DNA from: a bacterium
GTDB taxonomy: Bacteria > Cyanobacteriota > Sericytochromatia > S15B-MN24 > VGJW01
Assembly (NCBI GenBank): GCA_021781555.1
Contig: JAJXWQ010000012.1
Span: forward strand, 27,956 to 59,955
Direction: 5' to 3'
Length of the DNA: 32,000 bases
How positions within the stretch are numbered: position 1 is the first letter of the stretch; each line of letters opens with the position of its first letter. Position numbers and translations under genes: made by a program. This document shows, piece by piece, positions 3-32,000 of the stretch. The notes below the pieces were generated by a model. The model made no database searches, had not been told where the DNA came from, and was given only the letters and a program-made list of their open reading frames with translations.

Positions 3-1247
3 GTGATCGGCCTCAACTGCTCGGTGGGCCCGGCCAAGCTGCTCGAGGCGATCGAGCGCATCGAGGGCCGCACCGATCGCCCCCTCTCGGTGCAGCCCAA
101 CGCCGGCCTGCCCCGCGAGGTGGACGGCCGCAAGATCTACCTGTCGTCGCCAGACTACTTCGGCACCTACGCCCGCCGCCTGGCGCAGGCGGGGGTGCGC
201 TTCATCGGCGGCTGCTGCGGCTCGACGCCCGAGCACATCGCCAAGATGCACGACGCCCTGCGCGCCACCGCCCCCGGCCGCGCGGTGGTGGTGCAACGCG
301 CCCCCGAGCAGGCGCCGCCCGACGTCGCGGTGGTGCCGCTGGCCGAGCGCTCCCGGCTGGCCGCCCGGATCGCCGCGGGGCAGTTCGTGACCAGCGTCGA
401 GATCGTGCCGCCCAGGGGCTGCGATCCGGCCCGGATGCTCGAGGGCGTGCGGATCCTGCGCGATGCCGGAGTCGACGCGGTCAACGTCCCGGACGGTCCC
501 CGGGCGCAGTCGCGCATGGGCGCCATTGCCACGGCGCTGCTGATCGAGCGCGAGGGGATCGAGGCGGTGGTCCACTACACCTGCCGCGATCGCAACCTGC
601 TCGGGATGATGAGCGATCTGCTGGGCGCGGCGGCGCTGGGTCTGCACAACCTGCTCCTGGTGACCGGCGATCCGCCCAAGATGGGGCCGTACCCGAGCGC
701 GACCGCGGTCTTCGACATCGATTCCATCGGCCTGACCAACATGGTCACTCGGCTCAACATGGGCCTCGATATCGGCGGCAACCCGATCGGGCCGCCGACG
801 AGCTTCCTGGTGGGCGTGGGCGTCAACCCCGGCGCGGTCGACCTCGACCAGGAGCTGAGGCGCCTGGAGTGGAAGGTCGAGGCCGGGGCGCAGTTCGCCA
901 TCACCCAGCCGGTGTTCGACCCCGGGCAGCTCGAGAGCTTCCTCGAGCGGATCGAGGGCCTCAGGATTCCGGTCGTGGCCGGCATTTGGCCGCTGGTGAG
1001 CCTGCGCAACGCCGAGTTCATGGCCAACGAGGTGCCGGGCGTGATCGTGCCGCCGGGCCTCATCGAGCGGATGAAGCAGGACGGCCGCGAGGCGCAGTTA
1101 CACGAGGGGCTGGCGATCGCCCGCGAGATGCTCGAGCGCGTGGGCCCCTACGTGCAAGGGGTGCAGGTCAGCGCGCCGTTCGGCCGGGTGGAGCTGGCGC
1201 TCGAGGTGCTGGCGGCGCGGCCGGCGGCCAGGCCTTTTTCGGCCTGA
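3..1247 (+). CDS. Bifunctional homocysteine S-methyltransferase / 5,10-methylenetetrahydrofolate reductase, 5' end cut by window edge
   Basis: The ORF is open at the window start. It shows the end of a Hcy-binding domain with the zinc-ligand motif GGCCGSTPEHI, followed by an MTHFR-type domain (FVTSVEIVPPRG, LLLVTGDPPK, FAITQPVFD). Confidence 0.88.
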   Translation: MIGLNCSVGPAKLLEAIERIEGRTDRPLSVQPNAGLPREVDGRKIYLSSPDYFGTYARRLAQAGVRFIGGCCGSTPEHIAKMHDALRATAPGRAVVVQRAPEQAPPDVAVVPLAERSRLAARIAAGQFVTSVEIVPPRGCDPARMLEGVRILRDAGVDAVNVPDGPRAQSRMGAIATALLIEREGIEAVVHYTCRDRNLLGMMSDLLGAAALGLHNLLLVTGDPPKMGPYPSATAVFDIDSIGLTNMVTRLNMGLDIGGNPIGPPTSFLVGVGVNPGAVDLDQELRRLEWKVEAGAQFAITQPVFDPGQLESFLERIEGLRIPVVAGIWPLVSLRNAEFMANEVPGVIVPPGLIERMKQDGREAQLHEGLAIAREMLERVGPYVQGVQVSAPFGRVELALEVLAARPAARPFSA

Positions 1248-8140: not shown

Positions 8141-8189
8141 CCGCGCCCGGGCGGCAGCTCCGGTCCGGCTTTCTCGAGCAGGTGGCTTG

Positions 8190-9158
8190 ATGGACTCGCT
8201 GGCAGGGCATTCGCAGGCCGTCGCGGGCGAGGGGTCGCCGGGATCCACGCCGGCAGCCGTGGTCGCCAACATGCAAGAGGCGATCGTCGGCAAGGAGGAT
8301 GCGCTCCGCCTGGTCGTCTGCGCGCTCCTGGCGGGCGGCCATATCCTGCTCGACGACGTGCCGGGCGTGGGCAAGACGCTGATGGCCAAGACGCTGGCGC
8401 AGAGCGTGTCGGGGATCTTCAAGCGGGTGCAGTTCAGCCCGGACCTGATGCCGAGCGACGTCACGGGCATCAACGTATACCAGCAGGGCGATGGCCAGTT
8501 CCGCTTCGTGCCGGGCCCGATCTTCGCCAACGTGCTGCTGGCCGACGAGATCAACCGCGCCTCGCCACGCACGCAGTCGTGCCTGCTCGAGGCGATGGAG
8601 GAAGGCTACGTGACGGTGGATGGCGTCGGCTATCCCCTGCCGCGCCCGTTCCTGGTGGTGGCCACCCAGAACCCCGTCGAGTTCCACGGCACCTTCCCGC
8701 TGCCCGAGGCGCAGATCGATCGCTTCGCGGTGAGCCTGACGCTCGGCTATCCCCAGCCCGATCAGGAGGCCCGCCTGCTTTCGGGGCACTGGGCGCGGCT
8801 CGACGGCGCGCCGGTCGAGCCGGTGATCGAGCTGTCGCAGCTGGCCGCCTGGCAGGAAGAGGTGCGAGGCGTGAGCGTGGCTGCCGAGCTGCAGCAGTAC
8901 ATCGTGCGCGTGCTGACGGCCACGCGCACCCACCCGAGGATCGCGCTCGGGGTGAGTCCACGCGGCGGCCTGATCTGGCAGCGACTGGCCCAGGCCTGGG
9001 CGTTCCTGGCCGGGCGGGACTTCGTCGTGCCCGACGACCTCAAGGCCGTGGCGATGTCCTGCCTCAACCATCGCCTGGTCCTGGCGGGAAAATCGACGCG
9101 CGCCCTGCGGAGCCAGGTTCTCCTGGACGTCCTCGAGGGCGTGCCTGTGCCGATCTAG
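8190..9158 (+). CDS. MoxR-family AAA+ ATPase
   Basis: Walker A is DDVPGVGKT and Walker B is VLLADEINR. The sensor region FLVVATQNPVE...PEAQIDRF is present. The size of ~322 aa is typical of MoxR. I chose the ATG at 8190, one codon after the track's TTG. Confidence 0.9.
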   Translation: MDSLAGHSQAVAGEGSPGSTPAAVVANMQEAIVGKEDALRLVVCALLAGGHILLDDVPGVGKTLMAKTLAQSVSGIFKRVQFSPDLMPSDVTGINVYQQGDGQFRFVPGPIFANVLLADEINRASPRTQSCLLEAMEEGYVTVDGVGYPLPRPFLVVATQNPVEFHGTFPLPEAQIDRFAVSLTLGYPQPDQEARLLSGHWARLDGAPVEPVIELSQLAAWQEEVRGVSVAAELQQYIVRVLTATRTHPRIALGVSPRGGLIWQRLAQAWAFLAGRDFVVPDDLKAVAMSCLNHRLVLAGKSTRALRSQVLLDVLEGVPVPI

Positions 9159-9163
9159 GGCCG

Positions 9164-10273
9164 ATGTTCATGCGGGTCGGCGTCCTGCTGCTCATCGCCG
9201 CGGCCACGCTCTTTGCCGCCGTCAACGTGCAGATCGGGTGGCTCTATGCGCTCGGGGCGCTGTTCGTGGGTCTGCTGGCGGCATCGCCGGCACTTGGCGC
9301 CTGGCGCCTGCGAGCCGTGTCGGCCAGCGCGCGGGCCGAGCCCGAGACCGCCTGCCCCGAGCCGCTCTCGGTGGGCGTCGAGCTCGTCAACTATGGCCTG
9401 CTGGGCCGATCCTTCCTGGCCGTGATGGCGCCGCCACTGGGCGAGCGCTGGCCCGCCCGGTCACTGCTGCGCCAGCGGCCGCCCGAGCACTGGGCGATGG
9501 CCTTCGTGGAAGAGCTGCCCCCCGGGGGGCCGCGCACCGTGCAGCTGGCGGTTCCGGCTCCGCAGCGGGGCGCGTTCACCGATCCCGAGGTCTTCCTCCT
9601 GTGCGCGCCGCTGGGCCTGTTTTCGTGGTGGAAGCGGGTACGCATCCCCGGGGAGGTCATCGTGACGCCCCGGGTCGTGCCGCTCGACGGGATCGCCGGC
9701 TTCGACCCGGCCGAGGGCGGCGGCGAGGACCACCCCATGGCGCGGACGGTCCCCGAAGGCGAGATGCTGCGCTCGACGCGGGCTTACCGCCCGGGCGACC
9801 CGCTCCGGATGGTCCACTGGCGCACGAGTGCCCGCGCCGGCCACCTCGTCGTCAAGGAGACCGAGGGAACGGCCCTGGCTGGCGGGGCCACGGTGCTCCT
9901 GGACCTCGCAGGCCACTCGGCCGAGGGCCTGGAGCACGCGATCTGCGTCGCGGCATCGCTCCTTTCGTACCTGGCCGAAGGGGGCTTCCGGGTGCGGCTC
10001 ATCAGCCAGGCCGGCGTCGTCGAGGGCTCGCTGCAGTCCCAGCTCGAGGCCCTGGCGCGGGCCGGGGCCAGCAAGGATGGCCTGGCCCCGCTCATGGCCG
10101 ATCTCGAGCCCGCCGAGCTGGTCGTGATTTCCGCACGCGACGTCGGCTGGCGGTCGGTGGCGAGCTGCTGGATCCAGGTCGCCGAGCCCGGAACCCGGCC
10201 CACCGAGGGGACGCGCTTTTGCCCGGTGGGATGCGACGTGGCGGCGGCCTTGCGCGCGGACCGGCGCTCGTGA
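9164..10273 (+). CDS. DUF58-domain protein (MoxR partner)
   Basis: This is an internal ATG of track ORF 8579..10273. The N-terminus has two hydrophobic segments (MFMRVGVLLLIAAATLFAAV..LYALGALFVGLLAA). The hallmark STRAYRPGDPLRMVHWRTSARAGHLVVKE is present. Confidence 0.85.
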   Translation: MFMRVGVLLLIAAATLFAAVNVQIGWLYALGALFVGLLAASPALGAWRLRAVSASARAEPETACPEPLSVGVELVNYGLLGRSFLAVMAPPLGERWPARSLLRQRPPEHWAMAFVEELPPGGPRTVQLAVPAPQRGAFTDPEVFLLCAPLGLFSWWKRVRIPGEVIVTPRVVPLDGIAGFDPAEGGGEDHPMARTVPEGEMLRSTRAYRPGDPLRMVHWRTSARAGHLVVKETEGTALAGGATVLLDLAGHSAEGLEHAICVAASLLSYLAEGGFRVRLISQAGVVEGSLQSQLEALARAGASKDGLAPLMADLEPAELVVISARDVGWRSVASCWIQVAEPGTRPTEGTRFCPVGCDVAAALRADRRS

Positions 10274-12408
10274 GGGCCGACCGGAGCCCGCGCCTGTTCC
10301 GCCTGCAGGGCCGCGAGGAGGAAGAAGGGCCGCGCGGGGAGACCTTCTTCCTCGGCCTGCTGCGGCGGGACGATCCCCTGGGGCCGCTGCGACTGGCCAC
10401 GCTGGCCATCGTGATCATCGCCAGCCTGGGGCTCTTCTCGATCGATCCGCGCCCCGCCTACCTCGTGGCGATCGCGATCGCCGCCATCGGGAGCTGGTTC
10501 AGCCACTGGTTCAAGCGCCGGAGCTGGCTGGTCATCCTCCTCCTGGCGATCGGGATGGTCTACCTGCTGATCCAGCACCTGTCCAACGTGATCGCCCACA
10601 GCCAGGACACCCGGCTCCCGCTGGCCCAGATGCTGCTCTGGCTCTCGGTGCTCAACTCCTTCGACATGCCGCGCCGGCACAACCTGTTCATCGCCCAGAT
10701 CGTCGGCACGATCCTGGTGATCGTCACGGCAACCCTGTCGCGGGACCTGGCGTTCGGCTTCGTGCTGATCCCCTACTTCGTCGCACTGCTGATCTGGTCC
10801 CACCTGGATTCCCTGGCCGCCTTCGGCGTGCGGCCGCAAGCGCGGTCCGTGGCCCGCGAGCTGGTGCTGGCGGGGGGCGGGGCCGTGGCGATCGCGGCGC
10901 TCGTCTTCCTGGGGCTGCCGCGCGGCGGGGCGCCGATGCTACACCGGCTGCCGATGAGCGGCGAGCTGCAGCTGCCCTTCCACCAGGACACCCAGGTCCA
11001 GAATCCGGCCTATCCGGCGGGCCGCGACGATAGCGGGCCGCATCAGGCCAATCCCGACGCGTATTACGGGTTCACCGACGCGCTCGACCTCGATTACCGG
11101 GGGAAACTGAGCGATCAGGTCGCCTTGCGGATCCGGGCCAGCCGCCCCGAATACTGGCGCGGCATGGCCTTCGACCACTTCGACGGCCGGGTCTGGACGA
11201 TGACACGTCCCGACAAGGTCCACCGGCTCGAAAGCGGGACGCTCGATTACCAGTTGCCGCAAGAAACCCTGGCCATCTTCGGTTCGCCTCGGGTCGAGAC
11301 CCTCTACGTCGAGCAGAACCAGAGCAACCTCGTGCTCTTGCCCGGCGGGGCTCGCGAGCTGTTCTTCCCGTCGAGCCTGCTCTACCGGGATGCCTACGGG
11401 AGCCTCCGCAGTCCGGTCACCCTGGATCGTGGCCTGTACTACTCGGTCGAGTCACAGCCGCTGTACTGGGATCGCCGGATCCTGGACGCGGCGGGCGAAC
11501 CCCGCGGCCCGATCGCCAGCCGCATGGCGGCCTATCTCGAGGTGCCGGCAGACCTCCCCGCCCGCGACGTGGCCCTGGCGCACCGGCTCGTCCGCGGGGC
11601 GAAGGGGCCCTACGAGCGGGTCCGGGCGATCCTGAACTACCTGCGTCGGACCTATCCCTACGACCTGTCGATCCCGCACTTCCCGCCCCATGTCGACCAG
11701 GTCGACTACTTCCTGTTCGACCAGCGCCGGGGCTACTGCGAGCACTTCGCCTCGGCTCTCGCCGTGCTGGCCCGGACGGTCGGGGTCCCGACCCGTCTGG
11801 TGACGGGCTATGCCCCCGGAAGCTACGACATGTTCACCGGGTACTGGGATATCCGCACCGCGGATGCCCATGCCTGGGTCGAGGCCTACTTCGCGGGCAT
11901 CGGCTGGGTGCCCTTCGACCCCACGCCAGGCTTCGCTCCCCCCGCCCAGATGGCGCGCAGCGGGCCCACGGTGCCGGGACTGATGTTCCTGGGTTACGCG
12001 CAGGATCGCCTCGGGCCGATGTTCTGGGCCGTGCTGGCCGCGCTGGTCGCGCTCGCGATCGGCCTGGCCTGGGCCTTGCGCGGCGAGGCCGTGCAGCTGC
12101 GGGCCCTGCGCCGCCGCTCCCCCTCGCCCGAAGCCTTTGCCGCCAGCCGGGCCTACGTGCGCCTGCTGGCCGTGCTCGCGCGAAGAGGCATGCCGCGTCG
12201 GCCGGGCTGGAGCGCCCGCGAGCACGCTCGGGCCGCGGTCGAGCTCGCGGCGATCGCCCCGGCGGCTCTTGAACTCGAGGAATTTGCCTCCCTCTACCAG
12301 CAAGCGCGATTCGGTCCGCGGCCCACAAGCGCGCAGATCAGCCAGCTCGAGGGCCTGCTGGCACGGGTACGACGCCGGCTGGCCGCCACTCCCGCACGGC
12401 GGAGCTGA
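10270..12408 (+). CDS. Transglutaminase-like membrane protein (multi-TM N-terminus plus transglutaminase core)
   Basis: The GTG start overlaps the DUF58 stop (GTGA). The earlier part of track ORF 9238..12408 overlaps DUF58 in another frame and I rejected it. Several TM helices are present (LATLAIVIIASLGLF etc.). The Cys-His-Asp core is RRGYCEHFASALAVLAR...DAHAWVEAYFAGIGWVPFDPT. Confidence 0.85.
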   Translation: MRADRSPRLFRLQGREEEEGPRGETFFLGLLRRDDPLGPLRLATLAIVIIASLGLFSIDPRPAYLVAIAIAAIGSWFSHWFKRRSWLVILLLAIGMVYLLIQHLSNVIAHSQDTRLPLAQMLLWLSVLNSFDMPRRHNLFIAQIVGTILVIVTATLSRDLAFGFVLIPYFVALLIWSHLDSLAAFGVRPQARSVARELVLAGGGAVAIAALVFLGLPRGGAPMLHRLPMSGELQLPFHQDTQVQNPAYPAGRDDSGPHQANPDAYYGFTDALDLDYRGKLSDQVALRIRASRPEYWRGMAFDHFDGRVWTMTRPDKVHRLESGTLDYQLPQETLAIFGSPRVETLYVEQNQSNLVLLPGGARELFFPSSLLYRDAYGSLRSPVTLDRGLYYSVESQPLYWDRRILDAAGEPRGPIASRMAAYLEVPADLPARDVALAHRLVRGAKGPYERVRAILNYLRRTYPYDLSIPHFPPHVDQVDYFLFDQRRGYCEHFASALAVLARTVGVPTRLVTGYAPGSYDMFTGYWDIRTADAHAWVEAYFAGIGWVPFDPTPGFAPPAQMARSGPTVPGLMFLGYAQDRLGPMFWAVLAALVALAIGLAWALRGEAVQLRALRRRSPSPEAFAASRAYVRLLAVLARRGMPRRPGWSAREHARAAVELAAIAPAALELEEFASLYQQARFGPRPTSAQISQLEGLLARVRRRLAATPARRS

Positions 12409-15720: not shown

Positions 15721-16578
15721 TCAGCGCGCCTGGGTATCGATCTGCTTCGCCATCGCATCCTCGTAGCGCCGACGAGCGAGATCGAGGAATTCGGGTTCGA
15801 GGTCGATTCCGACGAACCGGCGGCCGTGGTGGGCTGCCGCCAGCCCGGTCGTACCGCTGCCGACGAAGGGATCGAGGATCAGATCGTCGGGGCGCGAAGA
15901 GGCCAGGATGATCCGCTCCAGGAGCGCGTAAGGCTTCTGCGTGGGATGGTGGCCGAGGCGCTTCTCGGCCTGCGAGGGAGCCAGGAGTCTCCAGACCGAC
16001 TTCATCTGCCGGCCACCGGCAAGCTCCCGCATGGCCGCGTAGTTGAAGGTGTGGCGGCTCTTGGCACCCCGAGCCGCCCACAGGATCGTCTCGGTCGCAT
16101 GCGTGAAGTAGCGGCACGAGAGATTCGGGGGCGGGTTGGGCTTTTCCCAGGTGATGTCGTTGAGCAGCTTGAAGCCGAGCTGCTGCATGGCGAAACCGAC
16201 CGAGAAGATCACGTGCCGGGTCCCCGAGACCCAGACCGTGCCGTCGGGCGCCAGGCCTTGCTGCACCGCCGCGAGCCAGGCGCGGTTGAAGCGGTGCATC
16301 TCGTCGAGCGACTCCAGGCGATCCCAGCTCCCCTTGTCGACCTTCACCATCCGGCCGGCCTGGCAGGTGATGCCGCCGTTGGACAGGAAGTAGGGAGGAT
16401 CGGCGAAGGCCATGGCGATCTTACCGCCGAGGTCGAGGCGATCGAGCACGTCGAGAACGTCGCCCTGATACAGGCGGAACCGCCCGTCGGGCGACGAATA
16501 GAAGGGAGTGATCTCGTCCACTTGATCCAAATCTCCTGGATCCACTGCAGTTAATCCCGAAAACTTGTCGTCGAACAA
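15721..16578 (-). CDS. Beta-class (circularly permuted) DNA methyltransferase, probably N6-adenine (CcrM/HinfI-like architecture)
   Basis: Motif IV (FADPPYFLSNGG) lies near the N-terminus and motif I (LDPFVGSGTTG) near the C-terminus. The start is TTG. The gene is convergent with rpoD and no nuclease gene is adjacent. Confidence 0.85.
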   Translation of the reverse strand: MFDDKFSGLTAVDPGDLDQVDEITPFYSSPDGRFRLYQGDVLDVLDRLDLGGKIAMAFADPPYFLSNGGITCQAGRMVKVDKGSWDRLESLDEMHRFNRAWLAAVQQGLAPDGTVWVSGTRHVIFSVGFAMQQLGFKLLNDITWEKPNPPPNLSCRYFTHATETILWAARGAKSRHTFNYAAMRELAGGRQMKSVWRLLAPSQAEKRLGHHPTQKPYALLERIILASSRPDDLILDPFVGSGTTGLAAAHHGRRFVGIDLEPEFLDLARRRYEDAMAKQIDTQAR

Positions 16579-16678
16579 TTGTCTCCGTGGATAACTGGCT
16601 AAATTCCTTTAGTTTTATCAATTACATGCGATATCTCCTGAAGTCGGGTACAATGATCACAAGATCTCGTTAGATACG
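16579..16678. promoter_or_regulatory. AT-rich divergent intergenic region (presumed promoters for the methyltransferase and the zinc-ribbon gene)
   Basis: My hand count gives 39 G+C in these 100 nt, within a window that is otherwise strongly GC-rich. It contains a TACAAT box (gggTACAATga) oriented toward the + strand gene. I found no convincing -35. Confidence 0.35.
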
Positions 16679-16879
16679 ATGTCCCAAACGAAGGGAAGGA
16701 CAGCAATGGCCAAGATCAAGCGGACCGACGAGCAGAAGGGTCTCCAGACCTGCAAGTACTGCGTGCAGTGCGGGCTATGGATGCCGCTGGCCAACTTCTA
16801 CACGGATCGGGCAAAGGGCGATGGCCTCCGCCCCTACTGCAAGCCCTGCGACATCGCCAAGGCCAAGCGCGCCGTCTAG
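16679..16879 (+). CDS. Small zinc-ribbon protein (CxxC...CxxC), of a type common at the N-termini of phage or mobile-element proteins
   Basis: The sequence is CKYCVQCGLWMPLANFYTDRAKGDGLRPYCKPCDIAKAKR. The likelier start is the ATG at 16706 (MAKIKR...), which is preceded by GAAGGGAAGGA. The gene looks less GC-rich than its neighbours by eye. Confidence 0.55.
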   Translation: MSQTKGRTAMAKIKRTDEQKGLQTCKYCVQCGLWMPLANFYTDRAKGDGLRPYCKPCDIAKAKRAV

Positions 16880-16962
16880 GTCGGTCAGATCGCGGGAGCC
16901 CGACGCGGCTCCCTGCCGAACTTGCGGAGCCATTCCCAGCCCGGACGCAGCCCGTTCGCATT

Positions 16963-17092
16963 CCAGTCGCAGCCCCCCTGCGCTCCCCATGTAGCCCGGC
17001 TTCCGCAAGCCGTTCGCCGTCGACGCCCCCACCCGCCGAGTGGGGGCGTCAATGGCGTCAACTTCGCTGGGCAACCGGCCCCGTTTGACTCC
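16963..17092 (-). repeat. Long variant of the dispersed repeat family (copy e) with a nested 10-bp hairpin
   Basis: On the minus strand, ggaGTCAAACGGGGCCGGTTGCcCAGCGAAG (17092..17062) matches the 5' half of the family. A weaker 3'-half match (GCGCAGgGGGgC..GACTGga) lies at 16986..16963. Between them is a perfect hairpin, GACGCCCCCA-N9-TGGGGGCGTC, at 17022..17050. Confidence 0.55.
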
Positions 17093-17259
17093 ACGGGCCC
17101 AGGTCCCTCTTGCCTGGGTCGGCACCGGATCTCATGACCCCTCCTTTATCCGTGACTAGTTGACATTAAACTGGTCTCCATGTCATTGTCGATCGCAAGA
17201 GCGTAGCCGCCTCCCGGCCAGAGGGCTCCCGAGGCGCGAGTCGACAGGAGAGTGCGTCC

Positions 17260-17688
17260 ATGCGGCCAAAGATCAGCCTGTTCCGGGCATCCGACCGTGC
17301 CACCTACCCCCACAACGTCCACCTGGCCATCCTCACCCGCGGCCGGCGCCAGGTCCTCGAGCCGGTCGCCGAGGCGCTGATCGACCTGTTCCGCGAGGTC
17401 GACAACTACGGCCTCGACAAGATCCGCGCCGTCCTCGTCGGCGCCGACCAGCTCCACGTCGTCGTGGCCATCCCACCCAACCGCTCCATCGCGCAGGTTG
17501 CCAGCCGCCTGAAGAGCCACGCCAACCTGCGCCTGACCAAAGATAACCCCGACCTCACGGCCAGCCTCGGGGGCCGGGCCCTGTGGCAGCGCGGCTACGC
17601 CTGCAAGGTTCTGGGTCCCCGGACGATGGCCGATATCAAGACCTACCTCTCGCACCAGCGGGAGTCCGGCACCGCGGAGCTGGCCTGA
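17260..17688 (+). CDS. tnpA: IS200/IS605-family Y1 (HUH-type) transposase homologue, TnpA-like, with no tnpB
   Basis: It aligns by eye to Salmonella IS200 TnpA: ADQLHVVVAIPP against ADHIHMLLEIPP, LWQRGYACKVLG against FWCRGYYVDTVG, and IKTYLSHQ against IQDYIKHQ (the catalytic Tyr and Gln are kept). AGGAGA lies 8 nt upstream of the ATG. Confidence 0.8.
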   Translation: MRPKISLFRASDRATYPHNVHLAILTRGRRQVLEPVAEALIDLFREVDNYGLDKIRAVLVGADQLHVVVAIPPNRSIAQVASRLKSHANLRLTKDNPDLTASLGGRALWQRGYACKVLGPRTMADIKTYLSHQRESGTAELA

Positions 17689-19104: not shown

Positions 19105-19404
19105 CTAGGCCGAGGCAGCCTCGACGGGAGCCAGCACGAAGCAGCGCGAGCGCTCCGAACCGCGATAGGCCAGCATCTCAGGGGATAGCGCGAGGCCCCG
19201 GCGCCCGATCAGCCGATGCACATCGACGGCCACGTCCACGGCCTCCCGCTCGCCGACCGCGCCGCGGCGCTGGACCTCGAGGATGTATCCACCCGCCAGC
19301 GCGGGCCCGATCGTTACCTGCAGACCGTCCTGGACGACATGGAATACCCCGTCCATCGCGCCAAGGGCCTTGTCCACCAGGGCTTGGAGCAGCGTCTCCG
19401 ACAT
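19105..19404 (-). CDS. Hypothetical 99-aa protein
   Basis: I trimmed the start to the ATG at 19404 (MSETLLQALV...), which is preceded by AAGGAGG. Third positions are strongly GC-biased. I recognised no family. Confidence 0.55.
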   Translation of the reverse strand: MSETLLQALVDKALGAMDGVFHVVQDGLQVTIGPALAGGYILEVQRRGAVGEREAVDVAVDVHRLIGRRGLALSPEMLAYRGSERSRCFVLAPVEAASA

Positions 19405-19423
19405 CCCGACCTCCTTTTCGATC

Positions 19424-19439
19424 ATTCTTTCGATAGAAT
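19424..19439. promoter_or_regulatory. AT-rich 16-nt palindrome (possible operator) in the leader/promoter region of the small-protein genes
   Basis: ATTCTTTCGATAGAAT is a near-perfect palindrome (ATTCT arms perfectly complementary; the central 6 nt TTCGAT are not self-complementary). On the minus strand a candidate promoter, TTGACG-N18-TATTCT, overlaps it. Flanking TTCGAT/ATCGAA motifs are repeated. Confidence 0.3.
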
Positions 19440-19564
19440 AGGCGATCGAACACCCGTTCGTCAACCAGGAAAGGCCCGATCGCTAGAAACTTTTTTCTAT
19501 GCGGGCGCTGCGCCGTCTCGGACCGCAAAAAGACGCAGAGGCGCGGGGAGCGATGCCAGGAGCC

Positions 19565-20248
19565 TCAGGCGTCTTTGCGGTCAGCCCGCTCGAGGAGCCA
19601 CAGGGGCAGGGGTTTGATGGCACCGGCGCCGTTGAGCCGGCGGACCTGGCGATCGAAGGGCTCGAAGTTGGGCAGCGGCGCGTGCTCCAGACCCTGCTCG
19701 GTGAGCGAGTCGAGGAAGGCGCGGCCCAGGTCCTTGCAGATCATCAAGGTGTCCTTGTCCCGGACCTTGACCGCGAAATAGCCATAAGCCCGGCAGATGA
19801 GCGGCCGAGCTCCGTAGATCGTGCACCGGTCGCCGATCAGCGCCGGGCAAACCGGCGGAAGACCCTCGAGGTGCGGGTTGATCGCCGAAAGCGAAGGCTC
19901 GCCCTGCCAGCTCCGTGCGACCTGGCCCAGCTGCTCGCGATAGGGCCCATAGGTCGCCTGGTTGCGCTCCAGCAGGTCCGCCGTCCAGGCCGCATCTTGC
20001 TCGTCGAGAAAAGCCGAGATCGCGCTCCACTCGAGTTCGGTCACGCGAAAGATGGAGTACTCCCGGCAGCAGAGGCTGCAGCCATCCCGGCAAGGCTGAC
20101 TCTCGTAGGCGCGATCCAGGGCAAACGCCAGGTAATCGATCAGGTAGTAAAGGTCGCTCCAGTCTTCCGTGCCCCCCACGCTGCGCGTGCGCGGCAGCTT
20201 GCGCCCGCAATCACGCAGGGTGGCCGAAAGAAGAGGTAGATCGAGCAT
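19565..20248 (-). CDS. YkgJ/UPF0153-type cysteine-cluster (Zn/Fe-S) protein
   Basis: The N-terminal Cys cluster is PCRDGCSLCC. The second cluster, VCPALIGDRCTIYGARPLICRAYG, is typical of the YkgJ family. I chose the ATG at 20248. The track's GTG at 20284 is an alternative. Confidence 0.7.
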   Translation of the reverse strand: MLDLPLLSATLRDCGRKLPRTRSVGGTEDWSDLYYLIDYLAFALDRAYESQPCRDGCSLCCREYSIFRVTELEWSAISAFLDEQDAAWTADLLERNQATYGPYREQLGQVARSWQGEPSLSAINPHLEGLPPVCPALIGDRCTIYGARPLICRAYGYFAVKVRDKDTLMICKDLGRAFLDSLTEQGLEHAPLPNFEPFDRQVRRLNGAGAIKPLPLWLLERADRKDA

Positions 20249-20297
20249 GACTTCACTGTAGGAGCCGGTCCGGAGCCTGTCCACCGGCTACGCCACC

Positions 20298-20323
20298 AGG
20301 GCCCGGTTGCGCAGCGCAGCGCC
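20298..20323 (+). repeat. Partial copy (5' half only) of the dispersed repeat family (copy b)
   Basis: AGGGCCCGGTTGCGCAGCGCAGCGCC matches the 5' half plus centre of the tandem copies at 31.9 kb. The 3' half is not present. Confidence 0.6.
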
Positions 20324-20376
20324 ACGGCAAGGCTGCTCACGGGCGCCGCCCCCGGCCCTCGCCCGGCCGGCCCGGC

Positions 20377-20405
20377 TTGACCGCACCCGGCGCCGGCCCT
20401 ACGCT
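20377..20405 (+). promoter_or_regulatory. Candidate sigma-70 promoter for the STAND gene, implying a near-leaderless mRNA
   Basis: The sequence is TTGACC (20377-82), N17, TACGCT (20400-05). The ATG at 20413 lies only 7 nt after the -10 box and has no Shine-Dalgarno sequence. Confidence 0.3.
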
Positions 20406-20412
20406 AGCTTCC

Positions 20413-22641
20413 ATGGGCATCTTCATCGGGCGAACGGGCGCCCTGGAGACCTTGCTCTCCGACCTCCTCGGCCCGACGAGCCGGACGATCGCCAGCATCC
20501 ACGGCATGGGCGGCGTCGGCAAGACGACGCTGAAGGCCGAGGTCCTGATGCGCCTGGAATCCGCGGGCGCCCGCGTGCCTTACTTCCACGTCGACGAGAA
20601 TGCTGCGCGGGGCGACCTGGCCGATTTCATCTGCACTTTGGCCGACAGCCTCCATCAGGCCTGGGAGGGACCGGCTGCCGAGTTCGGCCGCCTGCGCCGG
20701 CACCGCAACCGGCTTCGCGACCTCAAGGGGCGGTTCGCCGACTCGCCCGGCACCGTGATCCTGGAGCGAGGCCTGCAAGCAGCCCTGGCCGGTCTGGCCC
20801 GCCGGGTCTCGCCGGGGGTCACCTTCCACGCCGACCCGCAGCCCCTCGCCTCCGTCTGGAGTCGCTCGGACCAGTCGGATTTCGAGACCGCCGTCTCGTC
20901 CTGGACCCGCGATCGCGAGGATCGCGAGCTCCTGCTCGATCCCCTGGCCGTCCTCACGCGCGACTTCCTCGACGACCTGGCCGATGACCTCGTCCCCCCG
21001 GCCCCCGGGCTGGGCGGTCTGCTGGGCGGCCGGCGCCAGGTGCCGACGAACCCGATCCGGGCGCTCCTCGTGATCGACTCCTACGAGGCCCTCGATCAAG
21101 GGGTCCAGGAATGGCTCCTGGTCCACCTCCTGCCGACCTTCGAACGCCACCGCTTCGAGGGCGAGCCCCTGGACCGGGTGCTGGACCTCCGGCTGCTCCT
21201 GTGCGGTCGCCCGGCCTTGCGGGACGCCGATCCCCTGCGCCGCTGGGACGTGCTGGCCGACAAGATCCGCGAGATCGACCTGGACCGCTTCGACGAGCCC
21301 GAGATCGCCGCTTACCTCGAGGCCCGCGGCCTGCCCGCCCACCGGGCGCCGGAAGCGCAGCAACAGACGCAGGGCCTGCCCTACCTGCTGGCCCTGTGGT
21401 GCGACTCGGAGGGACGCGATCCGGCGCTGGCGGTCGAGCGCGCCGCACGCCGGATCTACTGGTGGAAGACCCCCGAGCAGATCCGCTGGCTGAAGACCGC
21501 GGCCTTTCTCGACGCGGTCGATCGCGACGCCCTGGCGATCGCCCTGGCCGACGGCAGCGAGGAGCCAGCCTACGCCTGGCTGGCCGCCAACAGCGAGCTC
21601 TGCGTGAGCGACGGGCAGACCCTCGCCATCCACCCCGTCATCGCGAGCCTGGTTCGCGAGGCGCTCGCCCGGGAGTCCGCGGCGGAAGCTGCCGAGCTGA
21701 CGAGCCGCTCGGGGCTGGCAAACCGGATCGCCGCGCTGCGCAGGCGCGCCCCCGGAGCCGTTGCGGGTACGTTCCCGGACGGCTTGAACCTGCCGTTCGG
21801 CACCCTTGTCGAGCTCGCGCCGCTGCGCTGGTTCGACGCGGAGATCCTGCGGGAGCTCGGCCTGGTCGAAGCCGGCCATCGGGTTGCCACCCTGGCGCCC
21901 GCAGCCGCGGAGGATCCGCTGCCCGAGCCCTACCCGGGAACCATTCTCCGACCCGGCCCGCACCCAGGCTCCCTGGCCCTGGCCGAGCCGCTGCGCCAGG
22001 ATCTCGTCGCCTACCTCGAGCTGGTGCGACCGCAGCATGGCCGCGAGGCGATCGCCCGGATCGCCGAGCTCGATCGCAGGCGCCGCCAGGACCGCGAAGC
22101 CGCACGCCGCGAATCCGAGACCGCCGCGCAGAGCCTGGCACGCGACGCCGCCGTCGCCCGCAAGCGGGCCCTATCCCTCGATGCCCGGATGCTGGCGCTC
22201 GAGGCCCAGGAGCAGGCGGTCGGCGAAGCACGCCAGCGCGCCGAGGCCGCGGCCGAGCAACTCGCCAGGCTGCCGGCCCGCACCTCGTGGTGGGGCGCGG
22301 TGGCCGCGGCAGCCTTCGCCATGGTGACAAGCCTGGCCGCCCGGCCGCTCCTGCCCGCCGCGGCCCGCCCCTGGGACAGTCTCCTGGCCACGCTGCTGGC
22401 AACCGCAGGCTTCCTGCTGGCGATCCGCGCCCTGGCCCTGCCTCGCGCCGCCCGGCCCGCCGATCACGCCGCCCTGCGCCACGATCTCGATGCCGCCGCC
22501 ACCCGCCTGGCCGAGCTCCGGGCCGACCTCTCGCAGACCCTGATCGAGGCCAGCGAAGCCGCCCGCGAGGCCGACGCCCTCGAGGCCCGGGCCGCCACGT
22601 CCGAGTTCGAGGCCGGGCAGCCCTTCTTCGCGCTGCTCTGA
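20413..22641 (+). CDS. NB-ARC/STAND-like P-loop NTPase with a C-terminal coiled-coil / putative TM hairpin / coiled-coil module
   Basis: The Walker A motif GMGGVGKTTL (about 20503) is the classic NB-ARC form. Walker B is ALLVIDSYE (about 21064). A GLPYLLALW motif (about 21373) resembles NB-ARC GLPLAL. Downstream there is a winged-helix-like region, then Ala/Arg/Glu-rich heptad-like stretches that flank two hydrophobic segments: WWGAVAAAAFAMVTSLAA (about 22286-22350) and LLATLLATAGFLLAI (about 22372-22440). Confidence 0.8.
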   Translation: MGIFIGRTGALETLLSDLLGPTSRTIASIHGMGGVGKTTLKAEVLMRLESAGARVPYFHVDENAARGDLADFICTLADSLHQAWEGPAAEFGRLRRHRNRLRDLKGRFADSPGTVILERGLQAALAGLARRVSPGVTFHADPQPLASVWSRSDQSDFETAVSSWTRDREDRELLLDPLAVLTRDFLDDLADDLVPPAPGLGGLLGGRRQVPTNPIRALLVIDSYEALDQGVQEWLLVHLLPTFERHRFEGEPLDRVLDLRLLLCGRPALRDADPLRRWDVLADKIREIDLDRFDEPEIAAYLEARGLPAHRAPEAQQQTQGLPYLLALWCDSEGRDPALAVERAARRIYWWKTPEQIRWLKTAAFLDAVDRDALAIALADGSEEPAYAWLAANSELCVSDGQTLAIHPVIASLVREALARESAAEAAELTSRSGLANRIAALRRRAPGAVAGTFPDGLNLPFGTLVELAPLRWFDAEILRELGLVEAGHRVATLAPAAAEDPLPEPYPGTILRPGPHPGSLALAEPLRQDLVAYLELVRPQHGREAIARIAELDRRRRQDREAARRESETAAQSLARDAAVARKRALSLDARMLALEAQEQAVGEARQRAEAAAEQLARLPARTSWWGAVAAAAFAMVTSLAARPLLPAAARPWDSLLATLLATAGFLLAIRALALPRAARPADHAALRHDLDAAATRLAELRADLSQTLIEASEAAREADALEARAATSEFEAGQPFFALL

Positions 22642-22680: not shown

Positions 22681-22748
22681 TCGTTTTCAGCTTGAAATGG
22701 TCCCTCTGCGCGGTCGCTTCGCTGCGCAACCGGTCCCATTTTGACCCC
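22681..22748 (-). repeat. Full short copy of the dispersed repeat family (copy c) between convergent genes
   Basis: The minus strand reads GTCAAAatGGGACCGGTTGCGCAGCGaAGCGACCGCGCAGAGGGACCatTTCAAgCTGAaAAcGA. The 33-nt core differs at one position from the tandem copies. Confidence 0.8.
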
Positions 22749-23959: not shown

Positions 23960-25850
<1,891 letters not shown>

Positions 25851-25858
<8 letters not shown>

Positions 25859-26498
25859 GCGATTCCTCCTTCGATGCGGAAGTGCCGTCTGTCGTAGCTT
25901 GTGGTGGGGCGCTCGGGTTGTCGGCGACCTGCACCATGGCATGCCGCAAGACCCGGCCGTTCAGGAAGTAGCCCTTCTGGGCGATCGCCAGCACCGTGTG
26001 ATCCGGATGCTCGTCCGTCGTGATAGAGGCGATCGCCTCGTGCAAGTTCGGATCGAACGGCTGGCCGACCGACTCCATCGGCGCCACCCCGTGGCGAGCC
26101 AGGAACTCGCCGATCTGCTTGTAGATGAGCTCGACGCCCTGGACGATGCTTGCGGGCTCGCCGGCCTGAGCGTGCGCCAAGGCGCGCTCGAGATTGTCGA
26201 CGATCCCCAGGAAGCTCTCCAGCACGCGACCGGCGGCGAAGCCGACGAGCTCTTCCTTCTCGGCGGCCGCCCGCCGCCGAAAATTATCAAAATCCGCGGC
26301 CAGCCGGTGAAGCTGCCGATCGCGATCGACCAGCCGAGCCTCGAGCTCGGAAAACCGCTGCGCGGCGGGCTCGGTGGAACCTCCGCCAGATTCTCTTTCA
26401 GGAGCCGCCGGCTCGGCCGCCGCCGCAGGGCCCGCGGCTGGCTCCGGGAGGTCTTGCGGCTCCACGGGCTCGTCTCGAGTCAATTCTTCCTCGTTCAA
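25851..26498 (-). CDS. grpE: Nucleotide exchange factor GrpE
   Basis: [21 protein letters not shown]...IVDNLERAL...VLRHAMV is typical of GrpE. The start is TTG. The 3' end overlaps the dnaK start by 8 nt. Confidence 0.9.
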
Positions 26499-31880: not shown

Positions 31881-32000
31881 GGGGCCCGGTTGCGCAGCGC
31901 AGCGACCGCGCAGAGGGCCCCGTCAAACTGAGAAAGATACCGGGGCCCGGTTGCGCAGCGCAGCGACCGCGCAGAGGGCCCCGTCAAACTGAGAAAGATA
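31881..32000 (+). repeat. Tandem array of the dispersed repeat family (copies d1 and d2; 61-bp period), running off the window edge
   Basis: The 59-nt unit GGGGCCCGGTTGCGCAGCGCAGCGACCGCGCAGAGGGCCCCGTCAAACTGAGAAAGATA occurs identically at 31881-31939 and 31942-32000, separated by CC. A degenerate partial unit (gggctcgggcccgaggaGTCAAAC) precedes it from about 31857. Confidence 0.9.

Follow-up and report, generated by a model that had tools for sequence, protein, structure and literature searches.

A STAND-class nucleoside triphosphatase with a predicted C-terminal membrane hairpin from Sericytochromatia, a candidate membrane-tethered switch

This report deals with one gene in a stretch of 32,000 nucleotides from contig JAJXWQ010000012.1 of a bacterium of the Sericytochromatia; the whole stretch is called the window throughout. 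The predicted product of the gene has 742 residues and, judged from its motifs and its modelled fold, it is a nucleoside triphosphatase (NTPase) of the STAND class (signal transduction ATPases with numerous domains) that carries neither an N-terminal effector nor a sensor made of repeats. Two unusual elements are added to the STAND layout, namely a helical insert in the nucleotide-binding domain and a C-terminal module in which a hydrophobic hairpin, predicted to lie in the membrane, is placed between two long coiled-coil helices. The explanation that we prefer, with a probability of about one half, is that the protein would act as a membrane-tethered STAND switch with a defence-type mechanism, i.e., abortive infection, a proposal made by analogy with characterised proteins of this class.

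The nucleotide-binding module offers the clearest view of what the protein is. Residues are numbered from the ATG at position 20413, and the coordinates of the features are collected in Table 1. Walker A, Walker B and the sensor-1 arginine of STAND proteins are present; they are followed by a helical domain in which the GxP motif lies and by a winged helix that keeps its histidine, and the fold of these domains resembles that of solved STAND structures. In an alignment of 30 family members, which share 14–82% identity with the window protein, the invariant positions are G31, G34, G36 and K37 of Walker A (the P-loop), R266 of the sensor-1 motif LRLLLCGR, which closes a strand of the model, and F474, while D222, W234, D258, R260, G321, W359, F365, L374 and S422 are nearly invariant. 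The family consensus of Walker B is hhhhD[ST]YE, with the second acidic residue displaced by two positions from that of the classic DD or DE pair. K37 and D222 are separated by 185 residues, against about 70 between the same two motifs in PH0952, a STAND protein with tetratricopeptide repeats (TPR) from Pyrococcus horikoshii (PDB entry 6mfv). The long spacing is due to the insert of about 140 residues, which is helical and includes a disordered loop (residues 132–146) whose length varies among homologues. An earlier note, made from the letters of this DNA, had placed the P-loop near residue 31, Walker B some 185 residues further on, and then GLPYLLALW and a region resembling a winged helix, and it had remarked on the unusual Walker A to Walker B distance; each of these was found again where it had been read.

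The AlphaFold model built on the 30-sequence alignment has a predicted local distance difference test score (pLDDT) of 85.4 and a predicted template modelling score (pTM) of 0.63, and it superseded an earlier model from nine sequences (pLDDT 70.8), in which the P-loop was poorly modelled and from which only weak Foldseek matches were obtained. The winged helix of the model comprises helices and a beta-hairpin (residues 397–406). When the model of the whole protein was compared with the PDB by Foldseek, it matched NRC2, NRC4 and NRC3, Roq1, Avs4, NLRP2, Dark and Orc/Cdc6 with E-values from 4e-5 to about 1e-2 and probabilities of 0.99–1.0, and the matches to the nucleotide-binding modules of the NLR proteins (named after nucleotide binding and leucine-rich repeats), Avs4 and Orc/Cdc6 span about 450–500 aligned columns. 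The TM-scores per query length are low (0.2–0.28), an effect of the insert and of the C-terminal module, and Orc/Cdc6, which belongs to the sister AAA+ clade, scores like the STAND proteins. At the level of sequence, the best PDB match of the family profile is PH0952 (E = 4e-6), colinear over the P-loop, Walker B, GxP and the winged-helix histidine; LLVIDSYE is aligned with IIIIDDFHKF, GLPYL with GHPLML, and IHP with the VHD of KYFVHDMVREF. A PDB search with the nine-sequence profile had given P-loop matches only.

Regarding curated models, none of NB-ARC, NACHT, nSTAND1–6 and AAA_16 passes its threshold, and the sub-threshold matches fall at the P-loop only (Pfam scores against cut-offs: NB-ARC 23.0/23.5 bits, AAA_16 28/32.6, nSTAND6 18.8/27.7), a pattern that is the same across the 30 members. 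The NCBIfam and PADLOC models, applied to the whole window protein, also gave nothing but sub-threshold P-loop matches. No TPR, WD40 or leucine-rich repeat (LRR) model matches the protein; in the AlphaFold model the winged helix is followed by a small linker domain and then by the coiled coils. An N-terminal effector is absent, as the P-loop starts at residue 31 and the homologues share this start. The linker domain is the least conserved of the folded parts, with insertions and deletions and with a LAYF..FD-like motif to which the invariant F474 belongs, and we infer that it is a candidate sensor surface. Motifs, model and the lack of a repeat match together back the earlier reading of an NB-ARC/STAND-like NTPase devoid of N-terminal effector and repeat sensor.

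The C-terminal module was likewise anticipated, as Ala/Arg/Glu-rich heptad segments around two moderately hydrophobic stretches, and hydropathy and the AlphaFold model both confirm this layout, which is conserved in distant relatives. The maxima of the two hairpin helices on the Kyte-Doolittle scale (spans of 19 residues) are 1.65 and 2.02, and they are the sole peaks of at least 1.3 in the protein. In the two Ala/Arg/Glu-rich coiled-coil helices, hydrophobic residues occupy 0.61 and 0.80 of the a and d heptad positions, compared with 0.42 and 0.47 overall. Arginine flanks both ends of the hairpin. In low-GC relatives, and also in one with 67% GC, the equivalent helices reach values of 2.2–2.7 and are unambiguously membrane-like. 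Searches with this part of the protein alone gave little: Pfam run on ten C-terminal modules at E <= 0.1 returned scattered and inconsistent sub-threshold matches, and a PDB sequence search with the last 213 residues of the window protein returned nothing. A short tail, L-x-E-[PSN]-[FYW]-[IV]-COOH, closes the proteins across phyla (C-termini of P0012–P0042), although the Tanganyikabacteria-type proteins have lost it; this peptide could serve in docking or in autoinhibition.

Evidence for a defence role comes from the surroundings of the distant relatives. The best scores against the profile of the window's own clade (E = 1e-83 to 1e-51) belong to a set of proteins that we call group A (P0012–P0016, P0022 and the protein of locus L022), and four of the five group-A loci examined lie in or next to defence systems. 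P0013 is encoded directly upstream of BrxA-BrxB-BrxC-PglX of a bacteriophage exclusion (BREX) system. P0016 is encoded between hsdS/McrB/McrC and hsdR (type I restriction-modification and McrBC genes); the cyclase and a four-transmembrane-segment effector of a cyclic-oligonucleotide-based antiphage signalling system (CBASS) follow 3 kb downstream, and an integrase gene is close by. The L022 homologue has hsdS and an AriA/PtuA/GajA-like ATPase gene on one side and hsdR on the other, and P0022 stands 0.7 kb from a HamB-like (Hachiman-like) helicase. According to a 2026 survey of STAND proteins (PMC13581612), a random gene falls within 5 kb of a defence system with a frequency of 0.0153. Against this background, four of about ten independent contexts in a defence setting correspond to a binomial P of about 1e-5, and the contexts of group A favour a defence role for that group. 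Defence islands thus surround four of the five group-A loci, and the contexts of the window clade, of the Kapabacteria homologues and of the other relatives examined are not of this kind. A neighbour-joining tree of the NTPase region, computed with no support values, keeps the Sericytochromatia clade and group A separate; its deep branching is open to distortion by differences in GC content, and the tree was not used to propose a sister relationship.

The family to which these proteins belong is, as far as sequence comparison can tell, a rare and unnamed group of STAND-class NTPases found across several phyla and known almost solely from metagenomes of uncultured lineages. A word-indexed homology search gave nine relatives, all unnamed and one of them labelled Candidatus Sericytochromatia, and the same type of search with the 30-sequence alignment led back to the close clade alone. 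A metagenome scan yielded six loci, while an exhaustive profile search collected 574 representative clusters with E below 1e-3, of which 175 have E below 1e-10. Architectures were counted in the best 150 clusters of the latter search. At least 35 have about 650–790 residues and the same full-length layout, a number made up of 26 clusters with two hydrophobic peaks and others with one peak above threshold. About 80 are shorter than 560 residues (mostly 440–480) and end after the winged helix, e.g., P0031, P0038 and P0050; these might be split versions of the system. A further 22 clusters are longer than 830 residues, and the two of these that were scanned (P0028 and P0036) both carry C-terminal TPR arrays, which is the canonical STAND layout. 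Across the 30 aligned members, PADLOC gave weak P-loop matches only, for instance to mad8 with E = 1.2e-6 at best. By these comparisons the protein falls outside the named Avs and bNACHT families and outside the families of PADLOC-DB and the Pfam and NCBIfam models, in line with the earlier suggestion of a candidate novel gene.

In the explanation that we prefer, the N-terminal ATPase and both coiled coils would be cytoplasmic, because arginine flanks both ends of the hairpin, and the hairpin would tether the protein to the inner membrane. The coiled coils would form an antiparallel stalk, with the two-helix hydrophobic hairpin at its tip and a short aromatic tail after it. By analogy with characterised STAND and NLR proteins, the ADP-bound monomer would be autoinhibited. 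A trigger would be sensed via the linker domain, the insert of the nucleotide-binding domain, or both, as these are the sole candidate sensor surfaces; nucleotide exchange would follow and yield an ATP-bound oligomer, in which the C-terminal stalks and hairpins would be clustered in such a way that the membrane would be perturbed or permeabilised, with abortive infection as the outcome. In the Sericytochromatia/Tanganyikabacteria lineage, the gene would have become a vertically inherited resident beside dnaJ-dnaK-grpE-hrcA, and its present role there may have shifted away from killing, since some branches have a weakened hairpin or none. A bolder form of the proposal, which we regard as rather improbable, is an "inverted resistosome", in which an ATP-driven oligomer would bundle the C-terminal stalks and the two-helix hairpins would make a pore or channel, the Sericytochromatia copy being domesticated as a core gene beside DnaJ/DnaK and possibly guarding them. 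The resistosomes of plant coiled-coil NLR proteins use N-terminal helices; the inverted form would use the opposite end.

Comparison with known systems shows what is shared and what is peculiar. With Avs, bNACHT and the plant and animal NLR proteins, the family has in common the succession of nucleotide-binding, helical and winged-helix domains with Walker A and B, the sensor-1 arginine, GxP and the winged-helix histidine, as well as the Foldseek matches mentioned above, the organisation as a single-gene unit, and the presence of some members in defence islands. It differs from them by the insert between Walker A and Walker B and by the coiled coil/two-segment hairpin/coiled coil at the C-terminus, and it is without the N-terminal effector and the TPR, WD40 or LRR sensor; the protein lacks two of the three canonical parts of an NLR. 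In addition, no PADLOC model matched above noise, and the window copy is syntenic and vertically inherited. The exhaustive search places the TPR-STAND proteins next in closeness to the family; PH0952 and the relatives P0028, P0036 and P0162 differ from it in having a C-terminal TPR sensor array, no membrane segment and the shorter Walker A to Walker B distance.

The idea of a conflict NTPase that ends in a two-segment membrane module has a precedent in the GAP1-SLATT fusions, in which a conflict-system GTPase carries a C-terminal two-transmembrane-segment effector predicted to form pores (PMC7159879). The concept of a C-terminal module proposed to permeabilise the membrane is the same, and P0012 weakly matches the RT-SLATT model of PADLOC (E = 7.5e-4), but in the present family two long coiled-coil helices enclose the hairpin, and the NTPase belongs to the STAND class and is not a GTPase. 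Membership in SLATT was rejected, as Pfam found no SLATT match in the ten C-terminal modules even at E <= 0.1. The alpha-pore-forming toxins of the ClyA family (MakA, Nhe L1, YaxAB/XaxAB, AhlB, SmhB) share an antiparallel helical stalk with a hydrophobic hairpin as its "head"; they are secreted and have no NTPase. The family profile weakly matched MakA, VCA0883 and Nhe L1 at E of about 3e-4, and the GABA-B receptor and other membrane or coiled-coil proteins score equally; Foldseek with the first model (pLDDT 70.8) gave YaxAB, MakA, SmhB and AhlB at E = 0.08–0.7. This likeness is at noise level and driven by coiled-coil and hydrophobic composition, and we read it as a resemblance and do not claim homology. 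Finally, HslU, which is among the Foldseek matches, also has a large helical insert, its I-domain, that separates Walker A from Walker B at the same topological site of the P-loop fold, and it differs in belonging to another AAA+ clade, in having the HslV protease as partner, and in lacking a winged helix and a membrane module.

A considerable body of observations weighs against a defence mechanism, and first among them is the position of the gene. Nine related loci, from metagenome-assembled genomes of Sericytochromatia and Candidatus Tanganyikabacteria and from metagenome contigs, were retrieved with the NTPase gene itself as query, and in eight of them the gene occupies the same slot, with a divergent ykgJ-like gene upstream and the convergent dnaJ-dnaK-grpE-hrcA cluster downstream; the ninth contig (L005) ends inside the NTPase gene and its checkable upstream side matches. 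Identities across the nine loci are 73–80% for DnaK and 41–82% for the NTPase. The neighbours in the window are housekeeping genes, those for MTHFR/homocysteine S-methyltransferase, polysaccharide export, a response regulator and ilvC, to which are added a MoxR-type AAA ATPase, a TgpA-like transglutaminase, dnaG, rpoD and a GH35 glycosidase. The earlier note had called the context accessory-like, and this does not hold, given the shared slot and a purifying selection like that on the neighbours. It had also named strict conservation of syntenic position as speaking against its idea, and in this clade the position is conserved. The window copy is a vertically inherited chromosomal resident of the Sericytochromatia/Tanganyikabacteria and not a gene of an accessory island.

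Outside this clade, the Kapabacteria homologues are syntenic beside genes for a hexapeptide-transferase, udg, ddl and pfkB, and other relatives stand beside nuoJK/der/uvrA or recG. No family member was found in IMG/VR, the GenBank phages or the PLSDB plasmids, and no PADLOC model gave a relevant match to the window protein. Moreover, 391 of the 589 STAND clades of the survey are not associated with defence (PMC13581612). The hairpin itself adds to these points: in the window protein it is Ala-rich and only moderately hydrophobic, and arginine sits within or beside each of its helices. Two sister lineages have lost it, P0003 by an in-frame deletion and the Tanganyikabacteria-type proteins (590–596 residues) with a short remnant left behind, and both retain the rest of the gene. 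For this clade, the view of the hairpin as an essential effector is weakened. The layout of the module itself is conserved in distant relatives, where the hairpin is far more hydrophobic. As for the proposal of a defence gene, it is supported indirectly by the group-A loci and not by the window copy in its housekeeping slot.

These observations can be gathered into another explanation, in which the protein is a lineage-specific switch outside defence, a membrane-anchored STAND NTPase with a resident role, e.g., in organisation or signalling at the inner membrane or envelope, and the relatives in defence islands are a separate offshoot. We hold this to be possible, with the odds somewhat against it. 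It accounts for the slot that the nine related loci share, to the extent that their contigs reach, and for a strength of purifying selection equal to that on the neighbours: the ratio of nonsynonymous to synonymous substitution rates (dN/dS) is 0.205 for the NTPase gene, measured against the 82%-identical relative L005, and 0.14–0.25 for the adjacent genes. It is also in keeping with a promoter-like element conserved across the clade, with the housekeeping character of the whole window and the synteny in Kapabacteria, and with a gene that persists after loss of the hairpin. The sampled homologue clusters number 9 for the NTPase gene, close to the 13 for the adjacent ykgJ-like gene, of which a distant homologue (P0177) lies elsewhere in the company of no NTPase gene. 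In addition, defence and non-defence clades of STAND proteins are interspersed (PMC13581612). Against a resident switch stand the lack of a functional partner conserved across phyla and the defence islands around group A, whose members are the best scorers against the clade profile; the related loci were all retrieved with the gene itself as query, and the region tolerates insertions, namely a lipoprotein-like gene, Uma2, sugar-nucleotide genes and toxin-antitoxin pairs (L001, L003, L004).

A second alternative, which we consider unlikely, links the protein to its neighbours as a guard that monitors or uses the adjacent DnaJ/DnaK; the fixed tail-to-tail position of the gene with dnaJ would then be accounted for. 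There are precedents, as bNACHT25, an NLR-related bacterial protein, senses phage through DnaJ (PMC12169576) and STAND proteins can sense perturbation of host chaperones (PMC13581612). The NTPase gene adjoins dnaJ, in convergent orientation, both in the window and in L001, L002, L004 and L006–L009, but this orientation means that the two are not co-transcribed, four unrelated genes intervene in L003, and the family members of other phyla are not near chaperone genes. Sequence evidence for a DnaJ-binding element did not emerge, no search aimed at one having been made.

Mitofusin, atlastin and the bacterial dynamin-like proteins are built in the order NTPase, helical stalk, transmembrane hairpin, helical stalk. 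The domain order of the window protein and its predicted hairpin with both ends in the cytoplasm resemble mitofusin and atlastin in particular, and one could imagine an NTPase that remodels membranes. We find this very unlikely, as the NTPase domain is STAND/AAA+-like and no GTPase of the dynamin type, the sensor-1 arginine, GxP and winged-helix histidine are STAND motifs, and among the 50 Foldseek matches listed there is no dynamin, atlastin or mitofusin, NLR and Orc/Cdc6 proteins being dominant.

The last alternative, a chance open reading frame or decaying pseudogene, has a negligible probability: spurious long frames are frequent in high-GC DNA, and several overlap the gene here on both strands, but a third-position GC content (GC3) of 0.88 in this frame only, full-length homologues that keep the catalytic motifs, a dN/dS of 0.2 and a confident AlphaFold model refute it. 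The window has about 70% GC and therefore long frames on every strand, and it is only in the forward-strand frame 20251–22641 that the GC content by codon position, 0.79/0.55/0.88, has the signature of coding sequence in a 70% GC genome. The gene is genuine, under purifying selection and functional, and a protein identical to its product is on record (P0001). The start is set at the ATG and not at the TTG at 20377, because all homologues begin with MGIFIGR or MRIFIGR, and this gives the product of 742 residues. Upstream, the arrangement TTGACC-N17/18-TAnnnT-N7-ATG is kept in the window, L005, L006, L007 and L009, and a stricter scan for the sigma-70 consensus did not call the element. The messenger is probably leaderless, because the -10-like TACGCT ends 7 nt before the ATG; the earlier remark to this effect gains support from the conserved arrangement.

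Table 1. Features of the NTPase gene, of its product and of the surrounding sequence in the window
Feature	Residues	Positions	Strand	Basis or remark
Coding sequence, 742-residue STAND-class NTPase with predicted C-terminal membrane module		20413..22641	+	stop codon 22639-22641
Promoter-like element: TTGACC (20377-20382), 17-nt spacer, TACGCT (20400-20405)		20377..20405	+	sequence read
Strand b1, leading into the P-loop	26-31			AlphaFold
Walker A/P-loop GMGGVGKTT	31-39	20503..20529	+	G31, G34, G36, K37 invariant in 30 members
Helical insertion of ~140 residues, after strand b2 and before the Walker B strand	62-205	20596..21027	+	AlphaFold secondary structure, pLDDT
Walker B strand of the model	215-221			AlphaFold
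Walker B strand LLVIDSYE (D222, E225)	218-225	21064..21087	+	D222 nearly invariant
Sensor-1 strand of the model	257-265			AlphaFold
Sensor-1 strand LLLCGR (R266)	261-266	21193..21210	+	R266 invariant in 30-member alignment
Helical domain	295-349			AlphaFold
GxP motif GLPYLLALW of the helical domain	321-329	21373..21399	+	G321 nearly invariant
Winged-helix domain, IHP at 406 at the position of the STAND "MHD" histidine	354-421	21472..21675	+	AlphaFold, PH0952 alignment
Linker domain after the winged helix	423-538	21679..22026	+	alignments, AlphaFold
Coiled-coil helix 1	540-619	22030..22269	+	single 80-residue helix, pLDDT ~90
Hydrophobic helix 1 of the hairpin, WWGAVAAAAFAMVTSLA	623-642	22279..22338	+	Kyte-Doolittle, AlphaFold
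Hydrophobic helix 2 of the hairpin, LLATLLATAGFLLAIRALA	649-675	22357..22437	+	Kyte-Doolittle, AlphaFold
Coiled-coil helix 2	682-734	22456..22614	+	AlphaFold, heptad bias
C-terminal tail GQPFFALL		22615..22638	+	clade version (P-[AF]-F-[IVM]) of the family tail E-[PSN]-[FYW]-[IV]-COOH
YkgJ-family CxxCxxCC cysteine-cluster gene, divergent, conserved upstream neighbour		19565..20284	-	Pfam PF03692, synteny
REP-like repeat copy		17060-17078	-	
REP-like repeat copy		20303-20321	+	
REP-like repeat copy		22715-22733	-	
REP-like repeat copy		31886-31904	+	
REP-like repeat copy		31947-31965	+	
Extent of the copy at 20303-20321: partial REP-like copy (5' half), intergenic region upstream of the NTPase gene		20299..20321	+	forms no hairpin
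Extent of the copy at 22715-22733: full REP-like palindrome between the convergent stops of the NTPase gene and dnaJ		22692..22744	-	hairpin -21.9 kcal/mol, z = -3.4

The gene had also been described as bracketed by repeat copies. The repeats are real, and they are dispersed elements resembling repetitive extragenic palindromes (REP), not boundaries of the gene or ends of a mobile element. Five copies of the motif CCGGTTGCGCAGCG[AC]AGCG, all of them intergenic, stand in the window, where 0.16 would be expected. The motif belongs to a palindromic unit of about 40 nt, GGGCCCGGTTGCGCAGCGCAGCGACCGCGCAGAGGGCCCC, which in its full copies forms stable hairpins (z of about -3.4 to -3.5). The element is in none of the 28 related or family loci examined, including the 82%-identical L005. 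Since the repeat is dispersed, incomplete in its upstream copy and missing from all 28 loci, a mobile element bracketed by repeats was rejected, and the repeat says nothing on the mobility of the NTPase gene. The full copy that separates this gene from dnaJ may act as a bidirectional terminator or as a stabiliser.

One of the REP-like copies, together with a 21-nt palindrome (17015-17057), lies just upstream of an IS200-like Y1 transposase gene (17170-17688, forward strand, PF01797). A homologue of this gene is found at the same place, after scpB and before an epimerase gene, in L001, L003 and L004, in which scpA-scpB, the Y1 transposase-like gene and the epimerase gene are syntenic further upstream of the NTPase gene. 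The Y1 gene seems to be a domesticated REP-associated tyrosine transposase (RAYT) and not an active insertion sequence. Between rpoD and this gene there is an N6/N4 DNA methylase gene (15721-16578, reverse strand, PF01555), shared with L005 only, and the lowest GC content of the window, 0.62 at 16001-17000, is found around it.

Other observations concern the neighbourhood of the slot in the window and in related loci. A protein of 119 residues (19105-19464, reverse strand) with no Pfam match has counterparts of 52–86% identity near the ykgJ-like gene in L001 and L003–L005. A gene of about 200 codons, putatively lipoprotein-like by a cysteine near the N-terminus, is placed between the ykgJ-like and NTPase genes in L001 (9270-9863, reverse strand) and L003 (9352-9975, reverse strand). 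The four genes that separate the NTPase gene from dnaJ in L003 (12403-15617) are those for a Uma2 endonuclease and three sugar-nucleotide enzymes, and PIN/MazE and HicB genes are nearby in L003 and L004. The listed dnaK frame of the window (23960-25942, reverse strand) has an N-terminal extension of about 28 codons that overlaps the grpE frame (25851-26498, reverse strand, confirmed by PF01025), and the start of dnaK is probably near 25858. The MoxR-type AAA ATPase gene (AAA_3; 8187-9158, forward strand) is followed by that for the TgpA-like transglutaminase membrane protein (a frame of 1056 residues; 9238-12408, forward strand), both unrelated to the NTPase. Neither Rfam nor a tRNA scan returned a match in the window. 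Elsewhere in the family, in an organism of 67% GC (L018, 1258-7022, and L019, 1427-6753), the NTPase gene comes after an OmpA-family gene of 489 codons and a gene of 542 codons, all on the same strand with gaps of 8–29 nt, and the three may form an operon.

New STAND clades are common; the architecture described here is unusual, and no curated Pfam, NCBIfam or PADLOC model describes such a layout. If the preferred explanation is true, the protein would be an NLR-like ATPase with a built-in C-terminal membrane-hairpin effector on a coiled-coil stalk, with no repeat sensor and with an insertion like that of HslU. This would widen the range of known links between STAND oligomerisation and membrane damage, in the form of a compact single-gene system. 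Moreover, one and the same family comprises members in BREX and restriction-modification islands as well as members fixed in one slot across a class-level clade, some of these with the hairpin lost, and offers a case in which to ask how an immune NTPase may be domesticated.

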